From the IMG/VR virus record IMGVR_UViG_3300033555_000001, positions 160,001-224,000 of that record: a DNA stretch of 64,000 bases; one strand, given 5' to 3'. The notes under the pieces are model-generated. The model saw only the letters and a program-made list of their open reading frames with translations. It was not told the origin of the DNA and made no database searches. This stretch comes from a virus (lineage: Duplodnaviria; Caudoviricetes). This document shows, piece after piece, positions 15,137 to 52,537 of this stretch (its first letter is position 1; each line of letters starts with the position of its first letter). The translations under genes and the position numbers were made by a program.

Positions 15137-15244
15137 CCTTTTATTATAACATCAACATTTATTTCGGGTTGAGTTATATTATCAACTAAAATTTAAAGTT
15201 ATGGAAAGGGAACGTTTAATCAGTGCTATTATTTTCTGGGTGCA

Positions 15245-15270
15245 AAAAAGGAGACCTAGGTCTCCTTTTT
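15245..15270. terminator. Intrinsic terminator after the major capsid gene (bidirectional)
   Basis: Perfect 26-nt palindrome AAAAAGGAGACCTAGGTCTCCTTTTT. Confidence 0.85.
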
Positions 15271-15315
15271 AAGATTAAGTTGTTGCGGAACAACAACTTA
15301 GAAAGTTACATCTGA

Positions 15316-16587
15316 TTACGAGAACGAAACGTTTGTGATCCTGATCCGTGCGTAGTAATCCGCGCTGTTACCAAGCGATGTACCAGCGTTGGTGAACGTA
15401 GCTTTTCCGTACCGGGTCATGAGGCTCACTGCTGGCATGAACGTGTTAGCGTCCATAACAACACCGGTGCTCATCAGTGGAACGTATGGGCAGTAAAAGT
15501 AACCTGTATCCAACTCTGACGAACCGCCTTTGTAGCCGATCAAGATGTCTTCGCCAGTTGTACCAGTAGCCGAACCAGCGCCGCCAGTCAATGTCCAAGC
15601 ATCATTCAGACCCCAGTTGTACGAGTAAACGCGCATCTGGCCATTCAACATACCAACAAGCTTGTTACCGGTAGGATCTTGGAACTGGCCAGAGACCGCT
15701 GGTGCAAACACGGACTTTGAAGCAGATTGCAAGATCGAAGTAACCAAGTGCGAACCAACCAACCAGTTACCAGGTCCACGACGCGTTTTAGCGCCGATTT
15801 CGTTTGCAAGCTTGTTAACCAAAATACCAAGTTCAGCGTAACGATCACCAATGAAGTTCGGCGAGAAACCAGCTGGTGGAGTTGCGAAGTCGAATGTTCC
15901 AACAGTTGCGGCCAGGGCCAACAGGTCTGTCAAGATTTCATTGTCGATTTCGTGAGCGATCTGAGCTGACAAGGCTGCTGTCAATTCATTTTCCAGATCA
16001 AGACCGTGCTGCGAAGTCATGTCCTGAGCTGCTTCCATTGTCCAACGAGCCTGCAACTTACGGGAACCTGCAGTGATTGTTTGCTTCAAGACGCTCAAAC
16101 GCAACGCACGACCGCCGTAGCCTTCGTAATCGCTTGTATTCGCGCCAACACCAGTACTTGTGTTAGCTGTCAGTGCTGGCGGATAACCTGCCGTACCAAC
16201 GTTTGCTGTCGAATAGAAACGCTTCATCTTCGAGTTGTTTGCAAAAACTTCATCACCAGCAGCGATGTCGTTTGAAGGATCGCCGTTTGTGTCGACGGAC
16301 TCAGCAAACGCAAAGCGCAAGCTGTATACCAAGCCAACTGGACCGCTCATTGGCTGTACGCCAACTAGATCGGTTGCAATAGTACCTGGCAAAATACGAC
16401 GAATCATCGGGATAACGATTTTTTGGAAGCCGTCAACAGCGTTAGCCGTTGTTGCAGTTGCGCTTGCGGTTTCCATCATGTACTGCTTCTGATTCTCCAG
16501 AAGAGTAGACACGATTTGTTTCTTCGAACCAGTAAGGCCTTCTAGCAAGGCGGCTTTAGTTTCGATCCAGTTTTCCGTTAGTAACAT
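15316..16587 (-). CDS. Major capsid protein (T4 gp23-like)
   Basis: VGVQPMSGPVGLVYSLR, SRKLQARWTMEAAQD and GYFYCPYVPL motifs. Confidence 0.97.
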   Translation of the reverse strand: MLLTENWIETKAALLEGLTGSKKQIVSTLLENQKQYMMETASATATTANAVDGFQKIVIPMIRRILPGTIATDLVGVQPMSGPVGLVYSLRFAFAESVDTNGDPSNDIAAGDEVFANNSKMKRFYSTANVGTAGYPPALTANTSTGVGANTSDYEGYGGRALRLSVLKQTITAGSRKLQARWTMEAAQDMTSQHGLDLENELTAALSAQIAHEIDNEILTDLLALAATVGTFDFATPPAGFSPNFIGDRYAELGILVNKLANEIGAKTRRGPGNWLVGSHLVTSILQSASKSVFAPAVSGQFQDPTGNKLVGMLNGQMRVYSYNWGLNDAWTLTGGAGSATGTTGEDILIGYKGGSSELDTGYFYCPYVPLMSTGVVMDANTFMPAVSLMTRYGKATFTNAGTSLGNSADYYARIRITNVSFS

Positions 16588-16619
16588 GTGTTGTGCTCCT
16601 TATATAGTGTGGGACAGGA

Positions 16620-17507
16620 TTACTTGCTGATACCTGCGAGGCGCTGCAGATTGGCGATGCTTTCATTAAGCTTCGTTGCTACTGCCGCTGGTTCCAACGG
16701 TGCGTCACCTGTCACGACCGTGGTTTTCTTTTCAACTGTAGACTCACTAAGAGTAGTAGTTGCCGGAGCAGCTACGTCTTCTTTCATGATACGACCGATG
16801 AAGAATTTATATGACTCTTCAAGACGAGCAGTATCGATGTTTTTAAGAACCATCTCCATTTGCTCACGTTTCTTTCCTGATAGATTAGAAAGAATTTTCT
16901 CAAGCTTTACTTCACGTACCATCACGCGATTAGCTTCTTCCGAGTCAGTTAATGCTTGTGCTAGATCTGCAAGTTGTGATTCAGCCACCTGGAGCTTGGA
17001 GCTCACGGAGTCTTCATTAACATGCGCTTTAGCAAATGTGGTTGCGTACGCTTCAAAAATCTGGCGACCAAATTCGTTTTGTTTTACAAGTGCGATATCT
17101 TCCGACAGTTCATCGATTTCGGCGGAGAGGCGAACTTCAAAAAACGCGTCCATTTTGTCGATTAGCTGTTCCATTTCCGATTCAACTTCATCGGCTAATT
17201 TGTACTTTTCTTCAACTAACTTTTCAGCGTACTCAGCTTCAAGGTCGCGGAAACGTTCAATATCAGATTTAAGTTCAGTAACTTCTTTAAGCAAAGCATC
17301 TGCTACAAAGCCATCAACCTTAGTAACCAGTTCATCGCGCTCAGCAAGCCACTGTTCTGCGAGTTCCGAACGAACCGTCAGTGAAACTTCTTCGCGGACT
17401 TGCGTCTTGAAGGATTCAACTGAAGTTGTCCATTGCTCGGAGATTTCAGCTTTAGTTTCTTCGCTAAGCAGCTCAGACTGAAGCAATTTCTGCAGGATTT
17501 CGTCCAT
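16620..17507 (-). CDS. Prohead core scaffolding protein (gp22-like)
   Basis: Acidic coiled coil directly upstream of the major capsid gene; ends NLQRLAGISK. Confidence 0.9.
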   Translation of the reverse strand: MDEILQKLLQSELLSEETKAEISEQWTTSVESFKTQVREEVSLTVRSELAEQWLAERDELVTKVDGFVADALLKEVTELKSDIERFRDLEAEYAEKLVEEKYKLADEVESEMEQLIDKMDAFFEVRLSAEIDELSEDIALVKQNEFGRQIFEAYATTFAKAHVNEDSVSSKLQVAESQLADLAQALTDSEEANRVMVREVKLEKILSNLSGKKREQMEMVLKNIDTARLEESYKFFIGRIMKEDVAAPATTTLSESTVEKKTTVVTGDAPLEPAAVATKLNESIANLQRLAGISK

Positions 17508-17602
17508 GCTTTCTCCTAATTAAATTTACCAAATTTTATAACCTGGCAAGTGTTGTGTTCTGCACTGACTGAAACAACAATCGTTTCTTTATCATGTTGT
17601 GG

Positions 17603-17608
17603 TATTTA
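17603..17608 (-). promoter_or_regulatory. gp55-type late promoter (TAAATA) for scaffold/capsid genes
   Basis: GCTAAATACC on the minus strand. TAAATA recurs upstream of late genes (e.g. 19120, 23810, 23823, 36856, 44560, 48034, 49830). Confidence 0.65.
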
Positions 17609-17662
17609 GCGCGCAGTCGAAAAAACGCATCAAAAACACAGTGCTTTTGATGCGCAGGGAGT

Positions 17663-17830
17663 TTACTCGTCAGATTGTTCTACAGATGCTTCTTCTTTTG
17701 CGGCCGAGAAGCCCGCGAGTTCTTGTGTTTTTGCTACAATGTAGTTGTGGATAGTTACTTCAGCCTGCTCAGGCCGATCATTAATCAAATCCTGCAACAT
17801 TGATTTTAGTTGCTCGCGTGCTTCGCTCAT
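17663..17830 (-). CDS. Small prohead core protein (gp67/gp68-like), 55 aa
   Basis: Below the ORF-track cutoff. MSEAREQLKSMLQDLINDRPEQAEVTIHNYIVAKTQELAGF...; AAGGA Shine-Dalgarno; lies between protease and scaffold genes. Confidence 0.65.
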   Translation of the reverse strand: MSEAREQLKSMLQDLINDRPEQAEVTIHNYIVAKTQELAGFSAAKEEASVEQSDE

Positions 17831-17887
17831 TGTGAGATCCTTTATATTAGTTAGCGCATGGTATTTAGTTCTACCGGTTGTGTGGAA

Positions 17888-18430
17888 TTACCACTCACTC
17901 TCTTCGGACCTGTCGATCACCGGTTTGACGAGCCTGACTGCCTTTCTAATAGATGCTCCATCAGGGAAAACAAAGTAAAAGATCCCAAAGTTCTCATGAC
18001 GCTTGTACTCGATGCCAGCGTCTTTAAGTTCAGCCTCTGCTTTTTGAGCATTCAGCCGATCTTCGAAACCAAACTCTGGGCGCTCTGTACTGACGCCACC
18101 CATCTTCACGCCGAGGTGTTTACCTTCAGCAACTTTAGACCGTAGAAATTTTTCAAGGGATGCACCGCCTTCGGCGCGAGCCGCTGCGGTGATGGCTACT
18201 TTATCAGTATCCCACTGCTTTTGCGATTCATCGTCTGCAATCGACGCGGCAACTTTACCAGATTTATTGAACAGCACGTTTATACCGTAGTAGTCCTCTT
18301 GATCGGCTTTGGCCGAGTTATTCTTAACAAGCACCGCAAACGTGGCCCCAATTGCGCCCATGTCGCCCGTACCGCAGTATTTATTTTTCTTGATCGCCTC
18401 GGTAAGTGCGATTAATTCCCTCAATATCAT
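17888..18430 (-). CDS. Hypothetical putative head-internal protein
   Basis: Leader MILRELIALTE; inserted in the head operon. Confidence 0.55.
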   Translation of the reverse strand: MILRELIALTEAIKKNKYCGTGDMGAIGATFAVLVKNNSAKADQEDYYGINVLFNKSGKVAASIADDESQKQWDTDKVAITAAARAEGGASLEKFLRSKVAEGKHLGVKMGGVSTERPEFGFEDRLNAQKAEAELKDAGIEYKRHENFGIFYFVFPDGASIRKAVRLVKPVIDRSEESEW

Positions 18431-19041
18431 TTTCCACCTTTGCGGATGGCCTCTAACAGGGCGTTAATTTCTTTCTTAAAGTACTCTTGAGCCTTTGGAT
18501 CATGCACAACGGCTTCGGCTAAAGTGAGAACTTTCTTTGAACCAAGAGCTTCTGCAACGTAGTTTGGATAGGCGTCTGGCGCGCTTGGTGTGGAAACAAT
18601 GTCCATTGTCACAAATGCAAAGTCTGAAACATTACCACCTTCATTTACCGTACCTGTACCACGGGAGCTCACACCTAGTCTGACTCCACCCTCCATGATG
18701 GCCTTAGCAATATTACCGCATGGCGTATTCAACATCTTCATTTTGCCAACTGCGTTGTTGCCGTCCATACGGATTTCAGTAATGGCGTGCGATACATTTG
18801 CCAGGTTAATGCTTAGAACATCGGGATGGTTTAATTCTCCCAAAATAAAATTGCCCTGTTTAATTTTACTCTGGCATTCGTCAACTGCGCGAGTAATTTG
18901 ATCAACCCCATAAGTTCTTCCGTTACCGTTTTTCATCGCGGCCTGCATCATGATTCCGGACAAAAACATATCGCCACCCACGCGTTTCATTTCTGTCAAA
19001 TTAGTAACATTCGGTGCAAGATATTCTGTCAACAAGATCAT
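18427..19041 (-). CDS. Prohead core protease (gp21-like)
   Basis: GELNHP, GVSSRGTG and DIVSTPSAP motifs. Confidence 0.95.
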   Translation of the reverse strand: MILLTEYLAPNVTNLTEMKRVGGDMFLSGIMMQAAMKNGNGRTYGVDQITRAVDECQSKIKQGNFILGELNHPDVLSINLANVSHAITEIRMDGNNAVGKMKMLNTPCGNIAKAIMEGGVRLGVSSRGTGTVNEGGNVSDFAFVTMDIVSTPSAPDAYPNYVAEALGSKKVLTLAEAVVHDPKAQEYFKKEINALLEAIRKGGK

Positions 19042-19161
19042 TTTGTAACTCCCAGTTTTAACTTAGCTTCCAGACCTGCAATAATCTTTATTACGGTCAC
19101 GGCTTTAACTTTATTCTTGTATTTAGCGTACAGCTCTTTTTTAGGGCGCCGGCCAAATAAT

Positions 19162-19179
19162 ACCTGCCCGTAGGCAGGT
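19162..19179 (-). terminator. Terminator hairpin after the portal gene
   Basis: ACCTGCC-TACG-GGCAGGT followed by a T-rich tract on the minus strand. Confidence 0.6.
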
Positions 19180-19203
19180 GTTCTACGTACTATAAGAAAT
19201 AAA

Positions 19204-20853: not shown

Positions 20854-20856
20854 GTA

Positions 20857-23775
20857 TTAGCCTCGTCTGAGGAGTTGATTAGTAAACTGTTCTGAATCAG
20901 CAAATCTAACTGCAGGACGCATGGCTAGCAGCATTGCGTCCGTGGCGTCTGCGTTTCGGGTTTCAACTGCTAGGTTATCACGCATGACTTGCAACATGCT
21001 TGTTAACACTATCATCATATCAGTATTTGTAGGTGTACCAACTGCAGGAACCTCTTTTGCTGCGACTGGTGGCGGTTCAATTGTATTTACCGTAGCCGGC
21101 ACAACAGCTTTTGGTATCTGAACCTGCGGCTGGCCCATGATTGCCTGTGCATCTCCGATTAGGGTTGATGCGCTGAGTGCACCGGCTTGGGCACTTGAAA
21201 ACTTTACTTGTGCCGCTGTTGCCTTAGTTGTAGCTTCAGTTGTTGCTTTTTCTGATTCAGCGGCGGCTTGTTGAGCGCTTTTACCCATTTTCTTAAGTGT
21301 TTTAGAACTATCGTCCCACAGCATACCCATAGCATTCATGTTTTCTGTTGAAGACTTTTCAAACGCCTCACCGCCGCCCTTTAAGTCTTTTACAAGCTGC
21401 GAGTCGTTGCTTAAAAACAAACCAAGCACGCTACCAAGGCCACTAAAGAGCCCGCCAAAAAAATGCTTAACCATTGCGTTTGCGCCCGCAACAAAAACGT
21501 CAAACTTGTTCTGCAACCAGCCGCCTGCGCCGGATCCAAAGACATAACCAAAAACGTCAATTAAAAAATTAGGAATTGCCGTTAAAAAGGCCGTAACAAC
21601 TCCGCCTACTCTGTTAAAAAAGCCACCGCTTGGATTTAATGCAATCGCCATTTCACCCGTAATTGCCTCTTTTATACCATCTATAATTCCAGCTATAGGC
21701 CCAAAAGCTTTGGCCGCGACCTTTAACCCGCCTATAATAGTGCCAATGCCGCCGGTTAGAGCGCCCGCGGTGCCGGCAAACACACTTCTGATTGCCGCTA
21801 GTGCGCCGTTAGAAGAGTTAATGGCCTGCACCCCGCTAATAGACGATTGCACCGCTCGAGGAATACCCGTAAGACTCGTGTAGAGGCCACTGGCGCCAGA
21901 TTTAATAGCCGCCAGTGGATTTAATAGCGTAGAAAGAACTGAACCGGTACCTTGTGCTACTTTAGCCAGCGCTCCAGTGGCTCCAGCGGCGCCACTGGCA
22001 CCCTGTGCGCCGGTTGCTAGTGCTCCAGCGGCTCCTTTGATACCTCCGCCGGTCAATAGAGATCCCATTAACTTGACTATTGGTCCACGGAATAGGGTAA
22101 GCAGTACGCCGCCAACCGCAGCTCCAATAGCAGGCACAATACTTTTTTGTATGCCCTCAGTCCATGCGGTTAACTTACCAACAGCTCGACCAAAAGAACC
22201 TACTGACTTACCAAAATCAGCGTTAGCCGTAGCGGGGCCGCTGTCAGCTGCAAGTGCCGCGGCATCGCTGGCCTTCCCAACTTGGCCAAGCTTTGTGGCA
22301 TCAATTTTTGCCCTCAAGTCTTCAATCGCGTGCTGCATGCCTAAATTACCGTTATTTGCCGCCTCTGCATACAGCGCATTTATTTTCTTAGAAAATTCGC
22401 CCTTGCGAGCGACCAATTCCTGGCTTTCTGCTCCAGTAATTGCAGTACCTTTAAGGCCAAGTTCGGTTATTCGCTGCGCATTTCCAGTATCGCCAGTAAG
22501 TGCGCCAAGGTTTAGGATAGCAGCGCGCTGGTCTAATCTTTCTGTAACTGTTGCTCCGCGTGCGGCAATAAGCGCATTACCAAGCGCTGTTGCTGCCTCG
22601 CCGGTTAAACCTAACCTGTTTCCAAGTGTTCTGATCTGTATCAATTCCTGCATTCGCGCCTGACGCTGAGCTGGTGCCAAGCCCAACATCTCACGCTGCA
22701 CCTGTTCATTCTTGCCAAGGCCGTCTACAACTTTTGCAAACTCATCAGTAGTAAGCAGAGTAGAAGCACGCAGATCTGAGAACGTTTTAATTTGTGCGTC
22801 TACAGCGCTACCAAGATCGCTGTTAAGAATACCAAATTCAGTACCGGTAGAGGCCAGTGCAGCCTGGAATGTTCGCGCTTCAGCTCCAAAGACGCCAATT
22901 GTTGCCAGCTGGCCATCGGCGGCCGAAATTAATTTATCGTATTCATTCAGACTGCCCTGACGCGCGGCGGTGCTGGAGTTCTCACGCACCATTTCGGTGT
23001 ACTCTTTTAACGACATGCCGGCCCTGGCCGCAAAGAACGACAGATCCGCCAAGTTACCGGCCGAGCCCAAGCCAAGGCGGGCGAGCGTCAAGTAATCAGC
23101 GGTTAATTTTGTTGTTATGTCAATAAGGCCTGAAAATACGGTAACAACTCCACCCGCAACAGCGCCAAGGCCTGTAAATCGTCCCAACATTTTGTCAACA
23201 GTGGTGCCAAACGCTGTAGTAGTACTGTCTAATCGCGTAGGCACTGGCCTGATCGCGCTATCTGCACCAGCCCGGCGGCGCATGCGCGCCTGTAAAATTC
23301 GGGCGGCTTCCTCGGTCGGCGCGTTAGAAGCGGCTCGCGGCGTTGCTGCTGCAGCTGCACCGTTTAAACCGAGTCCTTTTAATCTTGTGGCTGCTCCGCG
23401 CAACACGCCCATGAGCGAGTCAATTAAACCACTGCCGGTACCGCCGGATGTTGGTGTAGCCCCACCCTTTGCCGCGGTAAGTGTACCTTTAAATTTGGCC
23501 ATTTCAGAGGCAAGGGAGCCAAATCCGGTGGTTGTGCGGCCAACTGACGTGTTTAAGCTTACTAAGCTTTTATTCAGCCCGAGCAGTGCGTCATTTGTAT
23601 TCTTAGCTGTTAAGGCAATAGCTGTAAAAACTCGGGTGCCGGCGCGAATAGCTCCAGCGTTTTTTGCCTGCTCTGCTTTGTCTGCTGAAGATGGAAGCCG
23701 CCCGCCCGAGCCCGCCATTGCATTGCTGAGCAGTGTTTTGATATTTTCTAGCGTTTTAAGGATTTGTTCATCCAT
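20857..23775 (-). CDS. Putative tape-measure protein, 972 aa
   Basis: Long Ala/Gly-rich helical protein with hydrophobic stretches; transcribed divergently from gp26/gp51-like genes. Confidence 0.6.
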   Translation of the reverse strand: MDEQILKTLENIKTLLSNAMAGSGGRLPSSADKAEQAKNAGAIRAGTRVFTAIALTAKNTNDALLGLNKSLVSLNTSVGRTTTGFGSLASEMAKFKGTLTAAKGGATPTSGGTGSGLIDSLMGVLRGAATRLKGLGLNGAAAAATPRAASNAPTEEAARILQARMRRRAGADSAIRPVPTRLDSTTTAFGTTVDKMLGRFTGLGAVAGGVVTVFSGLIDITTKLTADYLTLARLGLGSAGNLADLSFFAARAGMSLKEYTEMVRENSSTAARQGSLNEYDKLISAADGQLATIGVFGAEARTFQAALASTGTEFGILNSDLGSAVDAQIKTFSDLRASTLLTTDEFAKVVDGLGKNEQVQREMLGLAPAQRQARMQELIQIRTLGNRLGLTGEAATALGNALIAARGATVTERLDQRAAILNLGALTGDTGNAQRITELGLKGTAITGAESQELVARKGEFSKKINALYAEAANNGNLGMQHAIEDLRAKIDATKLGQVGKASDAAALAADSGPATANADFGKSVGSFGRAVGKLTAWTEGIQKSIVPAIGAAVGGVLLTLFRGPIVKLMGSLLTGGGIKGAAGALATGAQGASGAAGATGALAKVAQGTGSVLSTLLNPLAAIKSGASGLYTSLTGIPRAVQSSISGVQAINSSNGALAAIRSVFAGTAGALTGGIGTIIGGLKVAAKAFGPIAGIIDGIKEAITGEMAIALNPSGGFFNRVGGVVTAFLTAIPNFLIDVFGYVFGSGAGGWLQNKFDVFVAGANAMVKHFFGGLFSGLGSVLGLFLSNDSQLVKDLKGGGEAFEKSSTENMNAMGMLWDDSSKTLKKMGKSAQQAAAESEKATTEATTKATAAQVKFSSAQAGALSASTLIGDAQAIMGQPQVQIPKAVVPATVNTIEPPPVAAKEVPAVGTPTNTDMMIVLTSMLQVMRDNLAVETRNADATDAMLLAMRPAVRFADSEQFTNQLLRRG

Positions 23776-42611: not shown

Positions 42612-42953
42612 ATGATTAGATTACCGCGATTAGAACTTTTAGCAGAACGGTTAAATCCAACTGATGGGCTGTTTAACGGTACAGGCCCGCAGTACAGGGC
42701 GGTGCTTCAAGCGTTTAAAAATGCCAATGGAATACAGCAAACTACTGATAAGTGGGCTGTCGCAGAAGATCCGTGGGCCGACAGCGTTTACCTTATAGTC
42801 CGGTGTTCCGACAAGAATGAGGTTACTGGTTTTGTATTTTTTAGAAAAGACAAGAGCACTAAAGTAGTACCTAACTTGCCGCCAAAAATGAGACGAGTTG
42901 GCATGGATGATTTGCTTCAGCACCTGACTGAAATTGGTGCTGAATTTAAATGA
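42612..42953 (+). CDS. Hypothetical protein
   Basis: Starts MIRLPRLELLAE; its stop overlaps the next start. Confidence 0.5.
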   Translation: MIRLPRLELLAERLNPTDGLFNGTGPQYRAVLQAFKNANGIQQTTDKWAVAEDPWADSVYLIVRCSDKNEVTGFVFFRKDKSTKVVPNLPPKMRRVGMDDLLQHLTEIGAEFK

Positions 42954-44527
42954 TTACTTTCAAAGAATACTTGCTGGAGAAAGCCTTGAATAGGGGCGTG
43001 TACCTTGACGTGATTAAGAAGCTCGCTGGTAAGGCGCTAGTCGGCCTTGAGATTGAAGCACGTGTGCCACCAGAATCACCGTCGTTTAGGCTGACAAAAC
43101 CGGCAGATCGGCGAACTGAAGATGTGCGCGAGTACAGCACTCTTGCAGATTTTTCAGAGAGCTTTTTAATCTCACCGACAGTTTTACGACAAATTACAGG
43201 CGACTTTGCTGGTTGGAGTGCCGCTCAAGAAGACGACTGGGTTGAGGACAATTGGGAAAGCTATATTGACGCTGATGAAGTTGAAGCAAGCGGAGACGCA
43301 AGAGCAGAGAAAACTGCCAGACGTGCCGCACTGGGCGATCATAAATCTGCAGATCACGGCTGGTCAGAATGGTTTACAACATTTAAAAATGTGACTGATT
43401 TTTTAGACATATACGAGTTAGAGCCAAAACATGGCTGGGTAGAAGACAACAAGTTCTTGGTGTACATGGCACTAGATGCTGCAGATACCGCTGATTCAAG
43501 TTGGGAGTCTACAGCTAATCACTTTGGTGCCTTGATGTCAGCTGCCATTGGCGACAAAGTAACTGTTAAAGATGCACCAGGTGCTGATTACTCCTCTTGG
43601 AAAATTGTACCAGATACAAGCATTACTAATGGCGGGCTTGGCACCAACACTGATGGTGATCTTACTGGCGTTGGAATTGAACTTGTGTCTCCGCCACTTC
43701 CCGTTGATACAGCAATTGATCAGCTCACCACAATCTTTAAGCTCATGACTGATCAGGGGCTGGACACAAACACGAGCACTGGTATCCACATTAATATTTC
43801 TGTTCCTGAGCTGGCTAAAAACCTAGATCCGCTGAAACTGGTCTTGTTTATGGGCGACGAGCACGTGCTGAAAGTGTTTGATAGATCAGCTAATCTCTTT
43901 ACGCGCTCTCAGATCTCGAGCATTATCGATGGCATTCAAATCACAGGCACTGTTCCATCTACAGGTGCTGAGTTAATGGATGCAGCACGCCAGTCACTCA
44001 GCCAGGCAAAGTACCGATCAGTTAACCTAGGGCATGTTGAAAAAGGATATTTGGAATTCAGAGCGTCGGGCGGCGTGAACTACCACAAAAAATTAGACTT
44101 AATAGTCGATACAATCGGCCGTTGGTTAACTGTAGTTGATATTGCTACAGATCCTGCTCTACTTAGAAATGAGTACCTTAAAAAAGTTGCAAAGTTATTA
44201 GGCCGTACTAGCGCTGAAAAAGATAAAGCACAGCACTCTGATGTAAGTTTAAAAGAACTTGTGATTAGTACTGCACGCAATAAAGAGGATGGAGAATCCC
44301 TATGGATTGACTTGCAGCAGCGTTCTGTGGTTGGTTTTGACGCATTAGCTAAATTCGCTATTAACGTTGCAAGAAGCTCGATATCAAAGCCAAGTGTTAA
44401 ACAAATTATGGATGTTAAAAATTTATTTAAGACTCTGTCTGTTACTGTTGCGGATATGGTTGAACAAGATCCAGATGTTGAAGTTCTGTTTAACAGATTC
44501 GCAGAGATGTTTAAACTACAAAAGTAG
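42950..44527 (+). CDS. Putative amidoligase (COOH-NH2 ligase type 2) with capsid-targeting-like leader
   Basis: VGLEIE, WKIVPDTSI, GIELVSPPL, STGIHINIS, KYRSVN and YLEFR motifs; leader MITFKEYLLE. Confidence 0.8.
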   Translation: MITFKEYLLEKALNRGVYLDVIKKLAGKALVGLEIEARVPPESPSFRLTKPADRRTEDVREYSTLADFSESFLISPTVLRQITGDFAGWSAAQEDDWVEDNWESYIDADEVEASGDARAEKTARRAALGDHKSADHGWSEWFTTFKNVTDFLDIYELEPKHGWVEDNKFLVYMALDAADTADSSWESTANHFGALMSAAIGDKVTVKDAPGADYSSWKIVPDTSITNGGLGTNTDGDLTGVGIELVSPPLPVDTAIDQLTTIFKLMTDQGLDTNTSTGIHINISVPELAKNLDPLKLVLFMGDEHVLKVFDRSANLFTRSQISSIIDGIQITGTVPSTGAELMDAARQSLSQAKYRSVNLGHVEKGYLEFRASGGVNYHKKLDLIVDTIGRWLTVVDIATDPALLRNEYLKKVAKLLGRTSAEKDKAQHSDVSLKELVISTARNKEDGESLWIDLQQRSVVGFDALAKFAINVARSSISKPSVKQIMDVKNLFKTLSVTVADMVEQDPDVEVLFNRFAEMFKLQK

Positions 44528-44626
44528 GATGAATTTTGGTGGAACATCCTGCCCGGCCCTAAATACACAGACAAACAACAAGCGATCAATTTTGATCCTT
44601 TTAAATCCAGTAGGAGATTAACAAAA

Positions 44627-46471
44627 ATGGCAACACTCGTTTCCCCAGGTGTTTCAGTCTCAGTCACCAACGAGAGCTTCTTTCTTCCAGTAACTGCACC
44701 TACCGTGCCGGTTATCTTTATCGCCACAAAGAGCGGTAAACTGCAACCAAACGGTATTACCCCCGCAGCTGGTACTCTAGAATTTGGCGTCGTTCGTACG
44801 GTTACTTCGGTCCCACAGTCTGTTGAGCTCTTTGGCGTGCCCCATTTCCGCAACGATGTTTCGGGTAATGAGTTCCACGGTGATGCTCGCAATGAATATG
44901 GTCTCTTGGCGCTAAACCAATTTTTAGCAGCTGGTAATCGCGCGTACGTTGTTCGCGCAAATATTGACCTAACCGACGAACCAGAAACATTCATGTCGCT
45001 GGGAACACCAGGCTTGGTTGGCTCATCTGTTTCGTACAACGGCATTGGCGATGGTTCAATTGAATCAATCACAGCGGTAAGTAATGCCGTGAAGCCTCAG
45101 CTGTTTGCAGTACTGTTTACTTCACCAACGTCCTTTTCGGTTACAGGCGCACTGTCTGGCTACATTGGCGCTGGTAACGTAGATGCTGCCTTTACCTCGT
45201 CTAAAATTAACTTTACTGTTATGTCTGGCGCAGTGCCATTTAGCGCTGGCGACACATTCACGTTTAACATGGCCCATATGGCTGTTGCTGCAGGCAGCAA
45301 TACTGGTAATGGTTCTGTTGTTTCACTAACAGTTGATACACTTGCGCTGCCTGAAACTATTACTGTTCTGATGACATCAGCGTCTGCGTTTCAGGTTAAC
45401 AGCACAGTTTCAATGATTGAAAACGGCGTTGTCGGTTCGGCATTTGATAACAACCGCGTTAACTTTACTGTTCAGGCTGGCACCGTTCCATTTGTTGCTG
45501 GTGATGAGTTCACAATCACTGTAAGTTCAGTAACTGTAAGTGCTCCGCTGGGCGCTAACGATGCAGCAAAACGTGTTGCTATTGTTACCGCACTGCAAGC
45601 CGCAATTAACAGCAATGGTGATGTCCGGTCGGAACTCTATGAGTTTAACTTGATTGCTTGCCCAGGTTATCCAGAAGTTGCAGATGAATTACATTCGCTG
45701 AGCGCGTCAACAAAGCAAGAGTCTTTGGTTATTGCTGACACCCCGTGTGATAAATCACCGGATCAAGTTGCACAGTGGGCACTAACATCTGCTCGTGCTG
45801 CAGGCGAAGACATTGCGTATTACTATCCATGGTGCCTGACATCTAACCTTGACGGCCGCGACGTACTTGGCGCACCATCGGGTACTGCTCTTCGCACCAT
45901 AGCGTTCAGTGATCAACAAGGTTATGTATGGTCTGCTCCAGCCGGAGTATCAAATGGTGTGGTGTCTGGCGTATCTCGTCTGGCCTATATAACTGGCACC
46001 AAGGGTACTGCAACCACGCTGATTGAGACTAATCTAAATCAGGGTCAACGCGATAACCTGTACGAATACGATAAAAACATTAACCCAATCTCGTTCTTCC
46101 CGGGCCGTGGATTTATGTTGTTTGGACAGAAAACTTCAGCACCAGCAGCAAGTGCTCTTGACCGCATTAACGTTGCACGACTGGTTATGTACTTGCGTCG
46201 TACACTGCGCAAAGGTGCGTTGCCATTTGTTTTCCAACCAAACGATCAAATCACACGTGATAACTTGAAAGCCGCAGCCGATGGTATCTTGAATGATGTA
46301 TTGACTAAGCGTGGATTATATGATTTTGCCACTCAGTGCGATACTAGCAACAACACTGCGGTAAGAATAGATCGAAACGAGCTGTGGTTAGACGTTGCAA
46401 TCAAGCCAACGAAAACAGCCGAATTTATTTATATCCCGATCCGTGTTGTTAGTACTGGTGCAAATATCTAA
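44627..46471 (+). CDS. Tail sheath protein (gp18-like)
   Basis: MATLVSPGVSV, KNINPI, ALDRINVARL and PTKTAEFI motifs. Confidence 0.97.
   Translation: MATLVSPGVSVSVTNESFFLPVTAPTVPVIFIATKSGKLQPNGITPAAGTLEFGVVRTVTSVPQSVELFGVPHFRNDVSGNEFHGDARNEYGLLALNQFLAAGNRAYVVRANIDLTDEPETFMSLGTPGLVGSSVSYNGIGDGSIESITAVSNAVKPQLFAVLFTSPTSFSVTGALSGYIGAGNVDAAFTSSKINFTVMSGAVPFSAGDTFTFNMAHMAVAAGSNTGNGSVVSLTVDTLALPETITVLMTSASAFQVNSTVSMIENGVVGSAFDNNRVNFTVQAGTVPFVAGDEFTITVSSVTVSAPLGANDAAKRVAIVTALQAAINSNGDVRSELYEFNLIACPGYPEVADELHSLSASTKQESLVIADTPCDKSPDQVAQWALTSARAAGEDIAYYYPWCLTSNLDGRDVLGAPSGTALRTIAFSDQQGYVWSAPAGVSNGVVSGVSRLAYITGTKGTATTLIETNLNQGQRDNLYEYDKNINPISFFPGRGFMLFGQKTSAPAASALDRINVARLVMYLRRTLRKGALPFVFQPNDQITRDNLKAAADGILNDVLTKRGLYDFATQCDTSNNTAVRIDRNELWLDVAIKPTKTAEFIYIPIRVVSTGANI
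46409..46471. repeat. 63-nt direct repeat: last codons of the sheath gene (second copy at 48465-48527)
   Basis: 58/63 identical by manual alignment. Confidence 0.95.
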
Positions 46472-46561: not shown

Positions 46562-47989
46562 ATGCCAACATGTAAAATATGCGGATACGCTCATGAGATA
46601 ATGATTCACTTTACTCATATCAGAAAACATGGTATGACGGTTCAGGAATATAAGCTAAAATTTCCCGGAGCCGCGCTGCGTGTGCAGAGCGAAGAATCTA
46701 AATTAAAAATGTCGGCCTCTAAAACAGGAAAGCCTTCTGGACTAAAGGGGAAAATCAGGTCTGAAGAACACTCTAAAAATATATCGGCCGCGCTAAAAGA
46801 AGCTTACTCTTCAGGAAAAATACAACATTGGAACTCAGGTAACACTACTCCACTGTGCGTTAAGGAAAAAATTGCGCAGGGAAATAGAGGCACAATAAAT
46901 GCTGGAAACATAAAGCAAAAGTTAAAAAAGCAGGAGAGAATTAAAGCCGGTGCCATAGCGTTTGGCTGTGAAGTGTTAAGCTGTGATGTAGAAGAACGCA
47001 CCACAGTAAAGTGCCTTGAATGTAAACACGTGTTTAGTTTTACAAACCAAATATTTTATGAAACTCGTTTAGAAAAGACTGGAAAGCTATGCCCGTCTTG
47101 TCAACCGCGAATTACATATTCTTCTGCGGGTGAGCAAGAGCTATTAAATTTCATCAAGTCAGTTTATGCTGGAATAATAATACCCAATGACCGAGGCGCT
47201 CTTGGAGGAAAAGAATTAGACGTTTATTTACCTGAACTCAAGATTGCATTTGAGTACACGGGGTTGTATTGGCACGCTGAAAAACAGAACCCAATAAACA
47301 AGCACTTGTTGTGGAAGAGAGACTTTGCGTTCAATCAAGGAGTCGAACTAATTACTGTGTTTGAAGATGAGTGGCACGATAAACAAGACATTGTTAAGTC
47401 TAGAATTATGAACATGCTAGGTCTTCAGGGTTTTAAATCTGCGGCCAGAAAATTAAAAATAGGTGTTCCATCCGTTAAAGAGAAGAATTTATTTCTGACT
47501 GAGAATCACTTGCAGGGTAGAGATACAAGTTCTGACTGGGCTGCGCTTATGGATGGTGGCGAGATCGTGTGCATTGCCACTTTTAAGAAAACTAGTATAT
47601 CAAAAGGCGGTTCTGGTGATCAGTGGGAATTAAGCAGGTTTGCATCAAAATTAAACACCCAGGTGCAGGGCGGAGCCAGCAGGCTTGTAAGCTGGTTTGT
47701 GCGCAAATACAAAGCAGACCTGGTGTCTTACGCTGATTCTAGATGGAGCACTGGAAAACTTTATAGAACTATGGGATTTGATTTTATCCATCGCTCTTCT
47801 CCAAGCTATTGGTACTTGTTAGATGGTTACAAACGACGCGTGCACCGCTCTGCGTTCATGAAACATCGACTTGTAAAATGTGAAGAGGATAAAGCTTTTA
47901 CGGAATGGGAACTTGCTCAGCAAGCAGGCATGGATCGCATTTGGGATTGCGGCACAACAAAGTGGCTGTTAAAGTACAATCCAAATTAA
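46562..47989 (+). CDS. Hef-like homing endonuclease with GNAT-like C-domain
   Basis: ELDVYLPELKIAFEYTGLYWH; CLEC/CPSC zinc ribbon; ELSRFAS; SYADSRWSTGKLY; IWDCG. Confidence 0.75.
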   Translation: MPTCKICGYAHEIMIHFTHIRKHGMTVQEYKLKFPGAALRVQSEESKLKMSASKTGKPSGLKGKIRSEEHSKNISAALKEAYSSGKIQHWNSGNTTPLCVKEKIAQGNRGTINAGNIKQKLKKQERIKAGAIAFGCEVLSCDVEERTTVKCLECKHVFSFTNQIFYETRLEKTGKLCPSCQPRITYSSAGEQELLNFIKSVYAGIIIPNDRGALGGKELDVYLPELKIAFEYTGLYWHAEKQNPINKHLLWKRDFAFNQGVELITVFEDEWHDKQDIVKSRIMNMLGLQGFKSAARKLKIGVPSVKEKNLFLTENHLQGRDTSSDWAALMDGGEIVCIATFKKTSISKGGSGDQWELSRFASKLNTQVQGGASRLVSWFVRKYKADLVSYADSRWSTGKLYRTMGFDFIHRSSPSYWYLLDGYKRRVHRSAFMKHRLVKCEEDKAFTEWELAQQAGMDRIWDCGTTKWLLKYNPN

Positions 47990-48033
47990 GTGTACACTTT
48001 TTACTGAATAAAGTATTATATCCATCCCAGCGC

Positions 48034-48041
48034 TATAAATA
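48034..48041 (+). promoter_or_regulatory. Perfect T4-type late promoter TATAAATA
   Basis: Exact match to the T4 late consensus, upstream of 48077. Confidence 0.75.
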
Positions 48042-48076
48042 AGTATGTTCAACGTTTACACACCAAAAGGAACACA

Positions 48077-48430
48077 ATGACATACATCGCTGAATTAAAT
48101 CGTACACGGCATCTTGCTGGCTTACAGCCGCTGTCAGAGGCTCAAACGTCAAAAATCTCTTCAGAGCTTAATGAAGCGTTTATCGAGCTAGATTGGGCTC
48201 TTGGTAATACGCCTAAAGAAGTTGAAAAGCTCGTTAAAGCAGCTGCAGAAAAAGAAGACTTAAAAGCAGAAATCATCACAATGGACGGCCCGGGCGGTGG
48301 CAACCCGCTTGTAAGATTCTCAGGTAAAAAAGCTAACATTAAGAAGTTTCTAGTAACATATTGCCATGGCGACGAAACTGAAGCAGATTTCATGATGAAT
48401 GACATTGGTCATAAGCAAGGGACTAGATAG
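48077..48430 (+). CDS. Putative head-internal protein with LNRxRxLAG leader
   Basis: MTYIAELNRTRHLAGLQPLSE; late promoter and AAGG Shine-Dalgarno upstream. Confidence 0.6.
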   Translation: MTYIAELNRTRHLAGLQPLSEAQTSKISSELNEAFIELDWALGNTPKEVEKLVKAAAEKEDLKAEIITMDGPGGGNPLVRFSGKKANIKKFLVTYCHGDETEADFMMNDIGHKQGTR

Positions 48431-48548
48431 GTATCTTTTTGCGGACCAACGTACTTATTCACGTACGAAAACATCCAAATTTATTTATATCCCAATCCGC
48501 GTTGTTAGTACTGGCGCAAATATCTAAAGCAGCAATTAAGCAATAATG

Positions 48549-48575
48549 AAAGGGACCCGAAGGTCCCTTTTTATT
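48549..48575 (+). terminator. Intrinsic terminator after the orphan sheath-end copy
   Basis: AAAGGGACC-CGAA-GGTCCCTTT followed by a T tract. Confidence 0.8.
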
Positions 48576-48581
48576 TGAGCT

Positions 48582-48878
48582 TTATTCTCTAGTTTCAACA
48601 ACCGTGCGTTTAACTCTGCTAATCATAACGGTTGCTTTAGTGCCACTTTTGATAGCTGCTCGTGTGAAATGAGATCTAATATCAGAAGCCCAGCCACCCC
48701 ATACTGGGCCGTATTCTACGTCCATTGAGATTGTGTTCTGGTTATTTGGTCCTGGTATAATCGTTTTCTTACGGACAGTGATTGTCCCAGGTAAAAAGCT
48801 TTCAATTTGCTTGAGAAGCTCGAGTTTGCCGCCCTGAATTTGTACTTCGGCTGTGAGGAGACCCTTGGTCTTTTGCAT
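48582..48878 (-). CDS. Hypothetical protein
   Basis: AGGAG Shine-Dalgarno upstream. Confidence 0.55.
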   Translation of the reverse strand: MQKTKGLLTAEVQIQGGKLELLKQIESFLPGTITVRKKTIIPGPNNQNTISMDVEYGPVWGGWASDIRSHFTRAAIKSGTKATVMISRVKRTVVETRE

Positions 48879-48981
48879 GTTAATGCTCCTGATTAGAATG
48901 CTGCAGCAGGTCGCCGCAGTAAAGGAATTCTAAGCTAGTATGATTTTTCAGTAATATTAGGAATCAGGTTAGGCGACAAAG

Positions 48982-49776
48982 TTAGGAAAGTATTGTCTTT
49001 AATCTGACTAACTCCTGCTTTTGTTTGTGCTTCCACAAGAGCTCCCAAAACTCATGAATTACAATTCCCTGCTCTGCAGCGTATGCAAGTTTATCAGCTT
49101 CGCGTGACCCATCGCCTGGGTGCCAGTATTCACCGTGGTATTCAAAACCAATTTTTAAATCTGGAAGATAGATGTCAATTTCTTTTGGCTTTATCGCTTG
49201 GCGATCATTCACAATAATCCGACCAGTATATAGTGCTTTCACGGCCTCATACAGTTCACCTTGCCCCCGAGATACATGGCAGGACGGACACCAAATACCA
49301 GTCACGCGAGTAAACGGCCGGCTAAAAACTTCACCGCATATATGGTGCCACTTGTATTCGTTTTGCATGCCAGGAATAATCTCATCAACTGGTGTAATGC
49401 CCTTTACTGCAAGTTTATCAAGCTTAGCCTGCGCACGATTGTTGAAGTGCGCGCTTTTCATGTCATAAGAAGTCTGCGCTTTCCATTCAGGATCTGCCCA
49501 GAGCTTTTCGTGACGTATAGATTTTTCTGGAGCTAATAATGCTTGAGCACACTTCATTGAACACACTTTTCTGTAACCCACTGTGTAATTTATCCAGTTT
49601 GTTAGCTTTCCGCAGTAACATGTTGGCCGTATGTTTAAGACGTTCCAGGCCTTCTCGGAAATGCTATTACCATGATATTCATTCAACCATATTAGGCGCT
49701 CAGCGTTGCGCCATTTACCAGCACAATATTTGCCATCTTGGAACAAGGCAACGATGAGTTCAGTTTGTTTTGTCAT
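48982..49776 (-). CDS. Short Hef-like endonuclease (no GNAT-like C-domain)
   Basis: CYCG...GYRKVCS; EIDIYLPDLKIGFEYHGEYWH. Confidence 0.7.
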   Translation of the reverse strand: MTKQTELIVALFQDGKYCAGKWRNAERLIWLNEYHGNSISEKAWNVLNIRPTCYCGKLTNWINYTVGYRKVCSMKCAQALLAPEKSIRHEKLWADPEWKAQTSYDMKSAHFNNRAQAKLDKLAVKGITPVDEIIPGMQNEYKWHHICGEVFSRPFTRVTGIWCPSCHVSRGQGELYEAVKALYTGRIIVNDRQAIKPKEIDIYLPDLKIGFEYHGEYWHPGDGSREADKLAYAAEQGIVIHEFWELLWKHKQKQELVRLKTILS

Positions 49777-49881
49777 TCGCTATTTAGAGTAATTTTTGAT
49801 TGAAACCTTGTAATCTGTAGATAAACCCATAAATACACTGAAGCTGCTCAAGCTGTACAAACCTTAATAGGAGTTATCAAA

Positions 49882-50475
49882 TTGGCAACATTATCGAATT
49901 TCGGAATTCCCGGCGCAGGTTCGGGAATCCTTCACCCAAAAATGCGTAATAAATGGAGGGTGACATTTCAGGATATTAGTCGCCTAGTATCTGGCGCAAA
50001 CAGCCGTAACCTTACAATGCAGGCAGTTACTGTTAGCCGCCCACAAATTGAATTTGAAGAAGTTGCAATTCACCGCTACAATTCAACTGCTTATATTGCC
50101 GGCAAGCACACATGGTCACCAATGAGTTTGACGGTAGACGATGATATTACTGGTCTAGCATCAAAAGTTGTTAAGGGCCAACTTGAAACACAGCAGCGCC
50201 TTGTTGGTGTTGACTTGGACGGCCGCTGGTTGAATACTGCAGCTACTGGTTCAGACTATAAATTTGGTGTTAAGCTTGAGCAATTAGACGGCGATGAGGG
50301 TGTTGTTGAATCGTGGATCCTTGAAGGCGTAATGATTCAGGCTGCCGATTTTGGTGAAGGCGATTATTCTTCTTCAGAGGCTATGACAATTCAGCTAACG
50401 CTGCGTTTTGATCACGCGCGCTGTATTGACGCTGGTGAGGGTTATGGAAGCGCGTTAGGCGGAAACGTTTCTTAG
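49882..50475 (+). CDS. Tail tube protein (gp19-like)
   Basis: TTG start; VSRPQIEFEEV, AGKHTWSPM and IQLTLRFD motifs. Confidence 0.9.
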   Translation: MATLSNFGIPGAGSGILHPKMRNKWRVTFQDISRLVSGANSRNLTMQAVTVSRPQIEFEEVAIHRYNSTAYIAGKHTWSPMSLTVDDDITGLASKVVKGQLETQQRLVGVDLDGRWLNTAATGSDYKFGVKLEQLDGDEGVVESWILEGVMIQAADFGEGDYSSSEAMTIQLTLRFDHARCIDAGEGYGSALGGNVS

Positions 50476-50487
50476 TAATTTTTTAAA

Positions 50488-50512
50488 TTTAAAGGGCCTG
50501 CTTTTTGCAGGC
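50488..50512. repeat. 25-nt direct repeat of the tube-gene terminator (second copy at 50830-50854)
   Basis: 23/25 identical; only the downstream copy keeps the full AAAGGGCCTG/CAGGCCCTTT stem. Confidence 0.75.
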
Positions 50513-50524
50513 TTTTATTGGATC

Positions 50525-50812
50525 TTGGAGAATAAATTGAATCTTGTTGAAACATTAAACAGAGCACGCGAGCTTGCCGGAATGGAGCCGCTGTCAGAAG
50601 CTGCAGCCAAAAAAATATCTAGCCCGTCATATAAAATTACATGGGAGGGTTATCCAAATAATCCTAAGCCAGAAACTCATGGCATTGAGTATTTTACAGA
50701 TGACCTGGCATTTGACAATGATGATCGTAATAAAATTAAAGATCTCGGAGTTGGCGACAAACATGTTATGGCTGGTCCTATGGACTCCGTCACGGTTGTT
50801 CGGATAAAGTAA
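50525..50812 (+). CDS. Putative head-internal protein with LNRxRxLAG leader
   Basis: ...VETLNRARELAGMEPLSE. Confidence 0.55.
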   Translation: MENKLNLVETLNRARELAGMEPLSEAAAKKISSPSYKITWEGYPNNPKPETHGIEYFTDDLAFDNDDRNKIKDLGVGDKHVMAGPMDSVTVVRIK

Positions 50813-50933
50813 TCTAGTTAAAAGTAGTTTTTAAAGGGCCTGTTTCTTGCAGGCCCTTTTAGTATGCGCAGTAGATTAATACACACGCTTGAGTATAGCT
50901 AAATATCTTATTACTTTATAGCCTGGAAATATA

Positions 50934-51247: not shown

Positions 51248-52537
51248 ATGCCCGACATCTCAAAATTAGTTAAAGTTGCCGGTATTGATGCCGAGAGAAC
51301 GGCCACCGAGCTGTTCGGCATTGCCGTGGAGGACTTTGCGGCCAAGCCACTGAATGCACTATTAAAGGGTGCATTAGGTGGGCCTGAGAATCCGCCGGTG
51401 AACCGCAACGATGGATCGTGGTATGCAACCTCGTACGCCGCAAGCCAGGCTAACTCACTGTTTCGCCCAAAGCTAAAGTTCTTATTTCGCGTTGAATTCT
51501 TGTTTAAGCCTGAAATTTTAGAGCAATACCAGGCACAAACAGCCGCGTGGAAAAATAACTTTACGTTCCTAATTAAGTCAGTCGATCGCCCTAAGGTTGA
51601 CTTTGAATACGAAGAAATCAATCAGTACAATTTTAGAACAAAAGTTCTAAAGATGATCAAGCACCGAGAGCTCACCATGACCTTCTCGGACGACGTTGGA
51701 AATACAGTGTATGAATTTTTTAGATTCATGCTCATGGTGCACTCTCCAATTACCCGACGCTCAGCTGGTTCCTCGCACAACATTGCGGACTATACTTCCT
51801 CTTCCAGCACCGGAAATGGTATGTTATTCTCTGGAAATCTGGGCAACTTAGAAGACAGCGCCAGCCGTGGCGTGCTTAACACTGACGTTGGTAATGCGAT
51901 TCAGGCAATTAAAATTACTCAGATGTTTGTACAGCCGGGCTCGGCTCAGCATGATCTTGATACTGGCGCAAAAGAAGTCTCGTTTATCTTTATTAACCCG
52001 CGTATGGTTTCTTTTGATCTTGATGATTTGAACCATGAGACCAGTGAAGCAAACTTGTTTACTATGCAGTTTGATTACGACTCAATGGTGCTCACTGACG
52101 CCAGATTGCTGCAGGCCCTGCCACCTGAAAAATCAATGCCACCAGTAGGCACTGCTCCTGGAGAAGCCGCACCGACTGGTCGAGCTCCTGGAGATCAAAA
52201 TCCAGAGGGTAATAATAATCCTTATACCAAGCTGCTGTCGGGAGTTGCTGCCAGAGCAGCACAACGCATCACTAGCGAAACAATTGGCCGCCAACTGCGC
52301 CGCGTGCCGGGGTTAGGATCAGTATCAGATGTACTTGGCGGGCTTGTGCAGGGGATTACGCGTGACCGTGTAGCCGGGCTTGGGTCAGCGCTTAATCAGT
52401 CTTTTGCCAGACCAAGTCGCGATGTTGTTTCTGATAACTCAACCGCCGGCCGTGACAGCAGCACCTTTGTTACCTCACGTGGCGGATTTGGCACTGATCA
52501 ACCAAGCGTAGACTCAATAGAAGAATCGGGAACATAA
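51248..52537 (+). CDS. Tube-like baseplate protein (gp19/gp54 paralog)
   Basis: RPKLKFLFRVEF, IKSVDRPKVDFE, LTMTFSDD and FTMQFDYD motifs. Confidence 0.75.
   Translation: MPDISKLVKVAGIDAERTATELFGIAVEDFAAKPLNALLKGALGGPENPPVNRNDGSWYATSYAASQANSLFRPKLKFLFRVEFLFKPEILEQYQAQTAAWKNNFTFLIKSVDRPKVDFEYEEINQYNFRTKVLKMIKHRELTMTFSDDVGNTVYEFFRFMLMVHSPITRRSAGSSHNIADYTSSSSTGNGMLFSGNLGNLEDSASRGVLNTDVGNAIQAIKITQMFVQPGSAQHDLDTGAKEVSFIFINPRMVSFDLDDLNHETSEANLFTMQFDYDSMVLTDARLLQALPPEKSMPPVGTAPGEAAPTGRAPGDQNPEGNNNPYTKLLSGVAARAAQRITSETIGRQLRRVPGLGSVSDVLGGLVQGITRDRVAGLGSALNQSFARPSRDVVSDNSTAGRDSSTFVTSRGGFGTDQPSVDSIEESGT

Follow-up and report, generated by a model that had tools for sequence, protein, structure and literature searches.

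Scaffold-tail-like leaders on two small proteins of a jumbo phage with a T4-type head: candidate prohead-targeting propeptides

The window analyzed here, a 64,000-nt stretch of the genome of an uncultured tailed jumbo phage related to T4 (bases 160,001-224,000 of one 310,728-bp contig, IMG/VR record IMGVR_UViG_3300033555_000001), contains two small open reading frames (ORFs) whose products begin with a common 21-residue leader. This leader resembles the conserved C-terminal tail of the family of head scaffolding proteins to which the scaffold of this phage belongs, it ends in the cut-site motif of T4-type prohead proteases, and it recurs on unrelated proteins of other jumbo phages. Our analyses lean, by a modest degree, towards reading the leaders as cleavable prohead-targeting propeptides that mimic the scaffold tail, by which the attached proteins would become enclosed in the prohead. 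The leader is read as a cleavable address tag for the scaffold-tail site because an S77-family protease, an L-S-E/A motif closing the leaders and an L-N-E motif before the scaffold tail occur together in this genome, and because the scaffold of phage 80alpha and the CpmB protein of SaPI1 offer a precedent.

The common leader and the tail of the scaffold family

The first gene (here cargo gene 1; 48077..48430, plus strand) is preceded by an AGGA ribosome-binding site and encodes a protein of 117 residues, consisting of leader 1, MTYIAELNRTRHLAGLQPLSE (48077..48139), and a 96-residue acidic alpha/beta domain, the isoelectric point being 5.4. The second (cargo gene 2; 50537..50812, plus strand) starts with TTG, from which its product reads MNLVETLNRARELAGMEPLSE, and encodes 91 residues, of which leader 2, M(TTG)NLVETLNRARELAGMEPLSE (50537..50599), precedes a mature part of 70 residues. 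L-S-E/A occupies residues 19-22 in both ORFs, with the predicted cut after E21, and the same genome encodes a prohead protease of the T4 gp21 family (18427..19041, minus strand; Peptidase_S77 PF03420, 6e-23; phrog_207, 3e-52), which by analogy is expected to cut after [LI]-x-E. An earlier sequence-only reading of this DNA had begun the second ORF at TTG 50525, which would yield 95 residues; the ORF and its leader stand, but TTG 50537 is the more likely start, since GGAG lies 6 nt before it while TTG 50525 abuts the terminator of the tube gene. A start at 50537 also gives leaders of equal length in both proteins.

That the two proteins share their leader only, as had been proposed, is borne out by BLASTP, in which residues 1-29 alone align (55-59% identity, E about 1e-5 to 3e-7). 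The DNA block common to both genes spans 67 nt with 70% identity and includes the 13-mer AGCCGCTGTCAGA, which lies, in agreement with that reading, in both leaders (48126-48138 and 50586-50598). Different codons encode 8 of the 16 identical residues, including CGT/AGA for arginine and TCA/AGC for serine, and these synonymous differences indicate selection on the peptide and that both frames are read; what is conserved in the shared block is the peptide and not the DNA. In the AlphaFold2 (AF2) single-sequence model of ORF 48077 (predicted local distance difference test, pLDDT, 72.7), a helix at residues 3-13 is followed by a loop (14-20), a second helix (21-30) and a beta-alpha-beta domain, and the low-confidence model of ORF 50537 (pLDDT 55.7) has helices at 3-13 and 21-27 like that of cargo gene 1. 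Both models predict an extended LAG-x-PLS stretch between helix 3-13 and the second helix from residue 21. No relative of either cargo protein was found among 5.8 billion proteins, nor in the phage collection, whether near or at the protein level, except for a weak match of ORF 48077 residues 60-110 to phrog_5922 (E 1.6e-6) or a T-even hypothetical protein. A Foldseek search of the ORF 48077 model against PDB returned generic alpha/beta (KH/ferredoxin-like) matches only (E>0.03), and a strict back-translated leader pattern had no match in IMG/VR.

The head genes form a minus-strand module of T4 type, with portal, S77 protease, scaffold and gp23-family capsid protein recognized by Pfam and PHROG matches. 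The scaffolding protein (16620..17507, minus strand; phrog_10922) is an acidic coiled coil of 295 residues in the position of gp22; its gene is placed between a gene for a 55-residue protein and the capsid gene, and the records of relatives annotate the counterpart as scaffolding protein. It ends in KLNE/SIANLQRLAGISK, the tail being encoded at 16623..16661 and preceded by the L-N-E site (16662-16670), which parallels the L-S-E of the leaders.

An exhaustive search found 469 homologues of this scaffold (E<=0.001), and tails were surveyed in the best 150 of these, mutually at most 50% identical. The pattern [LIMVF][AGS]G[LIVM] occurs within the last 12 residues of 95 of the 150, the rest being mostly near-variants or fragments. 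The 107 alignable tails have the consensus L(-5) R/K(-4) R/K(-3) L(-2) A(-1) G I/L(+1), with the glycine 1-4 residues from the end, and 87 of them carry [LIVM]xE within the 22 residues upstream. The tail motif, hydrophobic-x-x-L-[RK]-[RK]-L-A-G-[ILV], is a hallmark of this scaffold family, as seen in the ends of the scaffolds of PA5oct (LRRLAGIK), RAS14 (LRKLAGIDF), XacN1 (MKLAGIKG) and Atu_ph07 (LKRLAGIKK), and further in those of Vibrio phage 2.275.O (TKIAGIRK), A4 (VLSGINKK), SCTP-2 (INAGIKKN) and RsoM2USA (LKELGGVN). Some scaffold tails (..RRARELAGIK, ..MRHLAGLE) are near-identical to the leaders, and RARELAG in leader 2 is identical to the tail of one scaffold homologue (P0006). T4 gp22 has no such tail, and the motif is therefore not a general T4 feature. 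A literature search with RLAGI, KLAGI and RLAGL returned no phage paper, and we found no paper on a conserved [RK][RK]LAG[ILV] scaffold tail of this jumbo-phage clade.

Since the simple pattern [RK].?LAG[LIMV], which is 2.3-fold enriched in five proteomes (22 occurrences against 9.5 expected), misses the LSG, IAG and LGG variants, position matrices were used instead. The tail matrix was built from the 107 foreign tails, with every leader and the phage's own scaffold excluded, and scanned over 44,097 glycine positions in seven jumbo-phage proteomes. Leader 1 scored 21.1 (rank 4) and leader 2 scored 18.0 (rank 6), which places both leaders in the top six; ranks 1, 3, 7 and 8 were scaffolds, and the two leaders were the top non-scaffold matches in their own proteome. 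Two matches of at least 18 arose in 1 of 500 shuffled versions of this proteome, and both real matches are N-terminal with E/A at G+6, so that the protease site postulated behind the peptide is present in both ORFs as a putative L-x-E/A motif at a fixed distance. Leader 1 is also recovered by a second matrix built only from the N-terminal leaders of relatives, in which it ranks 7 of 44,445. With this leader-only matrix, scaffold tails reached score-equivalent ranks of 3 (Atu_ph07), 11 (Vibrio), 15 (PA5oct) and 22 (this phage) of 44,445, those tails that lay outside the scanned set being scored separately. With a nine-tail matrix, moreover, 4 of the 12 non-scaffold matches scoring at least 14 were N-terminal, against 0.83 expected (P=0.006), and a cut site followed all four, against a background of 18%. 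The likeness to the scaffold C-terminus that the sequence-only reading had noticed is therefore upheld when the foreign tails are taken as the reference.

A third carrier named in that reading, the 55-residue core-position protein with KTQELAGF (17663..17830, minus strand), did not withstand the same analysis: its segment ranks 8950 of 44,445 with the matrix of relatives' leaders, and its LAG is lost in the closest homologue (L122:9655-9831, in the metagenomic relative L122), in which RDLSNG stands at this place. It is not counted here as a motif carrier.

Carriers in related phages

Unrelated proteins begin with the same type of leader in no fewer than seven further phages or contigs, which agrees with the earlier proposal of a portable peptide distinct from the FKEF-type leader. 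In RsoM2USA it begins gene 380 (RsoM2USA_380; 104 residues, between protease and scaffold; leader MDITRLKHLAGVPLLE) and gene 68 (RsoM2USA_68; MDFSRRLKFLAGLCE); in RAS14 it begins WAX21740 (MNHPNLDAMRRLAGLPVLNE), in XacN1 the syntenic orthologue ORF218 (MNSIERLTKLSGIHTLTE) and in PA5oct EST35_0203 (MFNINDILRLAGVQAVKE). Three metagenomic contigs (L122, L125 and L128), which are head modules of relatives fetched via their scaffold homologues, add carriers at 8038-8424 of L122 (MSNLNRLRELAGLKRFCE/A), 758-1192 of L125 (MSDSINRIRKLAGLKPLME/E) and 630-1439 of L128, the last with two tandem copies, MNLETLRRLSGI...NELRKLAGLAMLTE/E. In the L122 and L125 carriers the leader is the only part common with the two ORFs of the window, and the spacing from glycine to glutamate is 6, as here.

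The peptide is not confined to N-termini. A second, internal copy is present in PA5oct EST35_0203, internal copies occur in EST35_0235 and in the Vibrio and A4 orthologues of EST35_0203, and a 111-residue Vibrio protein ends in LLE/DISRLAGVTNEDG. Elsewhere on the contig of the present phage, outside the window, an acidic orphan ORF of 162 residues (contig 130772-131260; L121:6772-7260), whose upstream neighbour is an exonuclease gene, ends in ..AAQRARQLAGLE (RARQLAGLE). This end is near-identical to RARELAGME, the leader 2 core, and to ..LAGLE-type scaffold tails; the ORF product may be a C-terminally tagged cargo.

Some of the carriers are linked to virions, through record annotations and one paper that bear on the carriers and not on the tag itself. 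The records of PA5oct EST35_0203 and EST35_0235 annotate both as structural proteins with electrospray tandem mass spectrometry (ESI-MS/MS). In addition, the chitinase ORF272 of XacN1 is reported to be packed in virions (PMC5852040), and its C-terminus, ..AKKLLGI, holds rank 9 with the tail matrix.

Proposed route and its alternatives

The route that we favor would begin with two small proteins, each with a 21-residue propeptide made of an amphipathic helix (residues 3-13), R-x-L-A-G-[LM] and P-L-S-E. During prohead assembly the propeptide would occupy the docking site of the scaffold tail, most likely on the gp23-type major capsid protein (15316..16587, minus strand; 423 residues; Pfam Gp23, 3e-90), at its inner face or its N-terminal region, and the attached protein would thereby be enclosed in the prohead. 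The S77 protease would then cut the E/A bond after L-S-E21, and the mature proteins so freed (96 and 70 residues) would be retained in the head and probably pass into the next host along with the DNA. It is conceivable, although on the whole somewhat doubtful, that the peptide hxxL[RK][RK]LAG[ILV] beside LxE serves the whole jumbo-phage clade with T4-type heads (PA5oct, XacN1, RsoM2USA, Atu_ph07, 121Q/A4-like phages and many uncultured ones) as a second, general address code. Any protein with this peptide at its N-terminus, internally or at its C-terminus would then dock at the scaffold's site on the capsid protein, be cut free and be shipped with the DNA, in parallel to and independently of the targeting leaders of T4 type.

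The capsid protein as partner was also addressed by complex prediction, in which the capsid protein and residues 1-40 of ORF 48077 were folded without alignments alongside three controls. The pair with leader 1 scored 0.39 and the best of the three controls 0.00, with, for the pair, a pLDDT of the partner of at least 67 and at least 88% of contacts agreeing between runs. Of 78 solved complexes, 51 reached the mark set for the tool, as did 2 of 108 mismatched pairs; among scores up to 0.60 it was reached by 5 of the 78 solved complexes and by all 4 passing mismatches (of 180). The prediction, which covered leader 1 and reported no interface, lends weak support to the capsid protein as the partner of the leader proposed earlier, with the scaffold core as a serious alternative.

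Several observations weigh against the propeptide reading. By the calibration of the tool, a complex predicted at 0.39 would be more often wrong than right. When the two leaders are compared with the phage's own scaffold tail alone, the rank is 3175 of 44,445, with little in common beyond R..LAG[ILM]; the likeness is weak within this genome and strong against the scaffold family. About 8 residues of likeness between the two ORFs extend beyond PLSE, into A-x-x-x-K-I-S-S, hence the shared block is more than the propeptide and the true cut could differ; other candidate cut sites are I-A-E6, L-V-E5 and, in ORF 48077, L-N-E33. Both cargo proteins are orphans. The carriers of PA5oct (EST35_0203), Vibrio, A4, RAS14 and XacN1 are orthologous members of one acidic low-complexity family, and the independent cases are therefore fewer than those listed. 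Finally, a tail-like N-terminus with a score of 15.0 is found on the tail-tube-like protein at 51248-52537; it is absent from the homologues in RsoM2USA, XacN1 and RAS14, and chance matches therefore reach about 15, which may be taken as the noise level.

Among the other explanations, the leader could serve to target the core, by binding to the scaffold or to the core itself (scaffold helices or other LAG peptides) rather than to the capsid protein, the two proteins then being co-assembled core components. T4 internal proteins enter the core before the shell and co-purify with gp22 (PMC9026906), the leader-bearing genes of RsoM2USA, L122, L125 and L128 lie inside the head module between portal/protease and scaffold, where T4 has gp67 and gp68, and several carriers have the motif twice or more often, as would suit a cross-linking core protein. 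Where structures are solved, however, the extreme C-terminal tails of scaffolds bind coat protein (80alpha; PMC5644958), and the complex prediction, which gives weak support, put the leader on the capsid protein; we regard a core tag as unlikely. Another explanation would make the two proteins assembly modulators or selfish competitors in mobile cassettes, with a mimic that competes with the scaffold as CpmB of SaPI1 does. The cassettes in which the two genes lie are indeed flanked by duplications of the sheath and tube gene 3' ends, and one cassette also holds a homing endonuclease; CpmB is a precedent of scaffold-tail mimicry for another purpose. Such competitors appear improbable, given that a protease site follows the leader as in cleavable propeptides, that the PA5oct and XacN1 carriers are virion components, and that neither AF2 model has the dimerising, scaffold-like body required for a function like that of CpmB.

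Still less credence is given to the view that the likeness to the tail is due to chance or to a generic amphipathic helix, the shared N-terminus being a duplicated gene start or ORF 50537 no gene at all. The core of the motif is short, a score of 18 was reached in 27 of 500 shuffled proteomes, the match on the tube-like protein is unconserved, and ORF 50537 starts with TTG, has a model of low pLDDT and lacks its own promoter-like box. Chance accounts poorly, however, for the pair of matches of at least 18, both N-terminal with E/A at the same distance, for the recurrence of the leader on unrelated proteins elsewhere, and for synonymous changes that indicate selection on the peptide.

Taken as a cleavable targeting propeptide, the leader has close parallels in known systems. 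The T4 protease gp21, which cleaves behind L/I-x-E, takes propeptides of 7-65 residues off the N-termini of retained head proteins and chops the core to peptides, and the 10-residue capsid targeting sequence (CTS) of the internal proteins suffices for packaging (PMC9026906). The T4 CTS (MKTYQEFIAE, on IPI-III and removed by gp21) is alike in being a portable N-terminal propeptide on unrelated proteins with an [LI]-x-E end in a T4-type head. Unlike it, the leader described here has 21 residues instead of 10 and the consensus LNRxRxLAG[LM]xPLSE, its two examples have no aromatic residue at position 4 or 7, its likeness is to the scaffold's C-terminal tail and not to the N-termini of core proteins, and the same peptide is also internal and C-terminal in relatives. 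T4-like leaders of the FKEF type, which do fit the CTS pattern of about 10 residues with aromatics at 4 and 7 and L/I at 8, occur in the same phage on other ORFs (40788, 42950, 55219 and 55890).

A second parallel is found in 80alpha, whose scaffold binds the N-arm of the capsid protein with its final 16 residues, folded as an amphipathic helix and a short basic/hydrophobic hook with a conserved RIIK, and SaPI1 CpmB copies this tail to use the same capsid-protein site (PMC5644958). Common to both systems is a conserved extreme C-terminal scaffold tail that is copied by another protein. Lineage and sequence are unrelated (RIIK vs [RK][RK]LAG[ILV]), and the mimic differs from CpmB in being N-terminal with a protease site after it and in being carried by small genes of the phage itself instead of a satellite's size-redirecting scaffold; in addition, binding to the capsid protein is solved for 80alpha and weakly predicted here. 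For T4 it is stated that the N-terminal region of gp23 probably contacts the core, and nothing more (PMC9546572).

The capsid-targeting propeptide and the mimicry of a scaffold tail are each known, and a cleavable scaffold-tail tag would be a new combination; we found no paper that describes a scaffold tail reused as a cleavable tag on unrelated proteins, nor such a route in T4-type phages. Encapsulin cargo-loading peptides and the C-terminal targeting tails of HK97-type prohead proteases are likewise short and terminal and attach cargo to the interior surface of a shell with the HK97 fold, and they are normally C-terminal and not cleaved off. Their sequences are unrelated to the leader, and they have no link to the tail of a separate scaffold.

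For the residue-level contact of scaffold and shell in T4-type phages, the tail conserved across this family offers a concrete and mutable candidate. Leaders that copy this tail suggest that part of the protein cargo injected by jumbo phages is loaded via the docking site of the scaffold itself. If this holds true, mobile cassettes could add virion cargo merely by carrying a 21-residue tag, a second and orthogonal tag would be at hand for loading foreign proteins into large capsids, and a simple sequence rule could predict virion cargo in uncultured jumbo phages.

Neighboring genes, cassettes and promoters

The head module further comprises the portal gene (19204-20853, minus strand; Portal_T4), a gene for a 180-residue protein and the gene of the 55-residue protein. 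The nearest named phages by the capsid protein are RsoM2USA (54%), XacN1, Xoo-sp13 and RAS14/CM1, and the 121Q/PBECO4 group comes next. At their N-termini the core genes (16620-19041, minus strand) resemble short leader types, namely MDEILQKLLQSELLSEE for the scaffold, MILLTEYL for the protease and MILRELIALTE for the 180-residue protein, and the protease ends in LLE/AIRKGGK, a short basic tail after a cut-site motif.

Peptides of the T4 type were also seen in relatives. RsoM2USA_381 (L001 3600-3827), a protein of 75 residues encoded between gene 380 and the scaffold, ends in ..QITFKDFIIAEGET, which is T4 CTS-like at a C-terminus. In L122, the closest metagenomic relative, at least 7 genes downstream of the capsid gene (14487-20869) have FKxF-type leaders (VITFKQFLTE, MRFKTFLNE, MKTFKQFLTE and others) that match the T4-like repertoire of the window. 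Besides, a 525-residue amidoligase-like ORF of the window (42950-44527, plus strand) has, after the T4-like leader MITFKEYLLE, a possible extra copy of the present motif, LDVIKKLAGK (residues 19-28; 43004..43033) followed by VGLE. The copy is weak (leader matrix 13.6; tail matrix 10.3, rank 46), with lysine at the I/L/V position, and the ORF may carry two tag types in tandem.

The tail-tube-like protein at 51248-52537 has 429 residues, starts with MPDISKLVKVAGIDAE and combines a tail-tube-like core (phrog_4542, residues 89-306) with a long C-terminal extension rich in Gly, Ser and Ala.

The cassette of cargo gene 1 is bounded by a 63-nt 3' end of the sheath gene (46409..46471, plus strand), a copy of which, 92% identical, closes it at 48465-48527; it contains a homing endonuclease gene (46562-47989, 475 residues) and the cargo gene. 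The cassette of cargo gene 2 is bounded in the same manner by the 36-nt terminator of the tube gene (50488..50523, plus strand), with a copy at 50830-50865 that is 81% identical. A truncated, endonuclease-like second gene was seen on the minus strand at 48982-49776.

No promoter-like box of its own was found for cargo gene 2, and its transcription would therefore read through the tube terminator. Cargo gene 1 has a putative late-promoter-like box, gCTATAAATAag (48032..48043, plus strand), about 36 nt before its ATG at 48077, and similar CTAAATAC boxes precede the sheath, tube and 55-residue protein genes. The exact T4 late promoter, TATAAATA, occurs 3 times in the window against 2.2 expected, without enrichment. 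C(C/T)(A)TAAATAC boxes, located 40-70 nt ahead of the sheath, tube, 55-residue protein, 38911 and 54501 genes (44557-44571, 49827-49841, 17850-17870 and others), are probably the phage's own version of the T4 late promoter.

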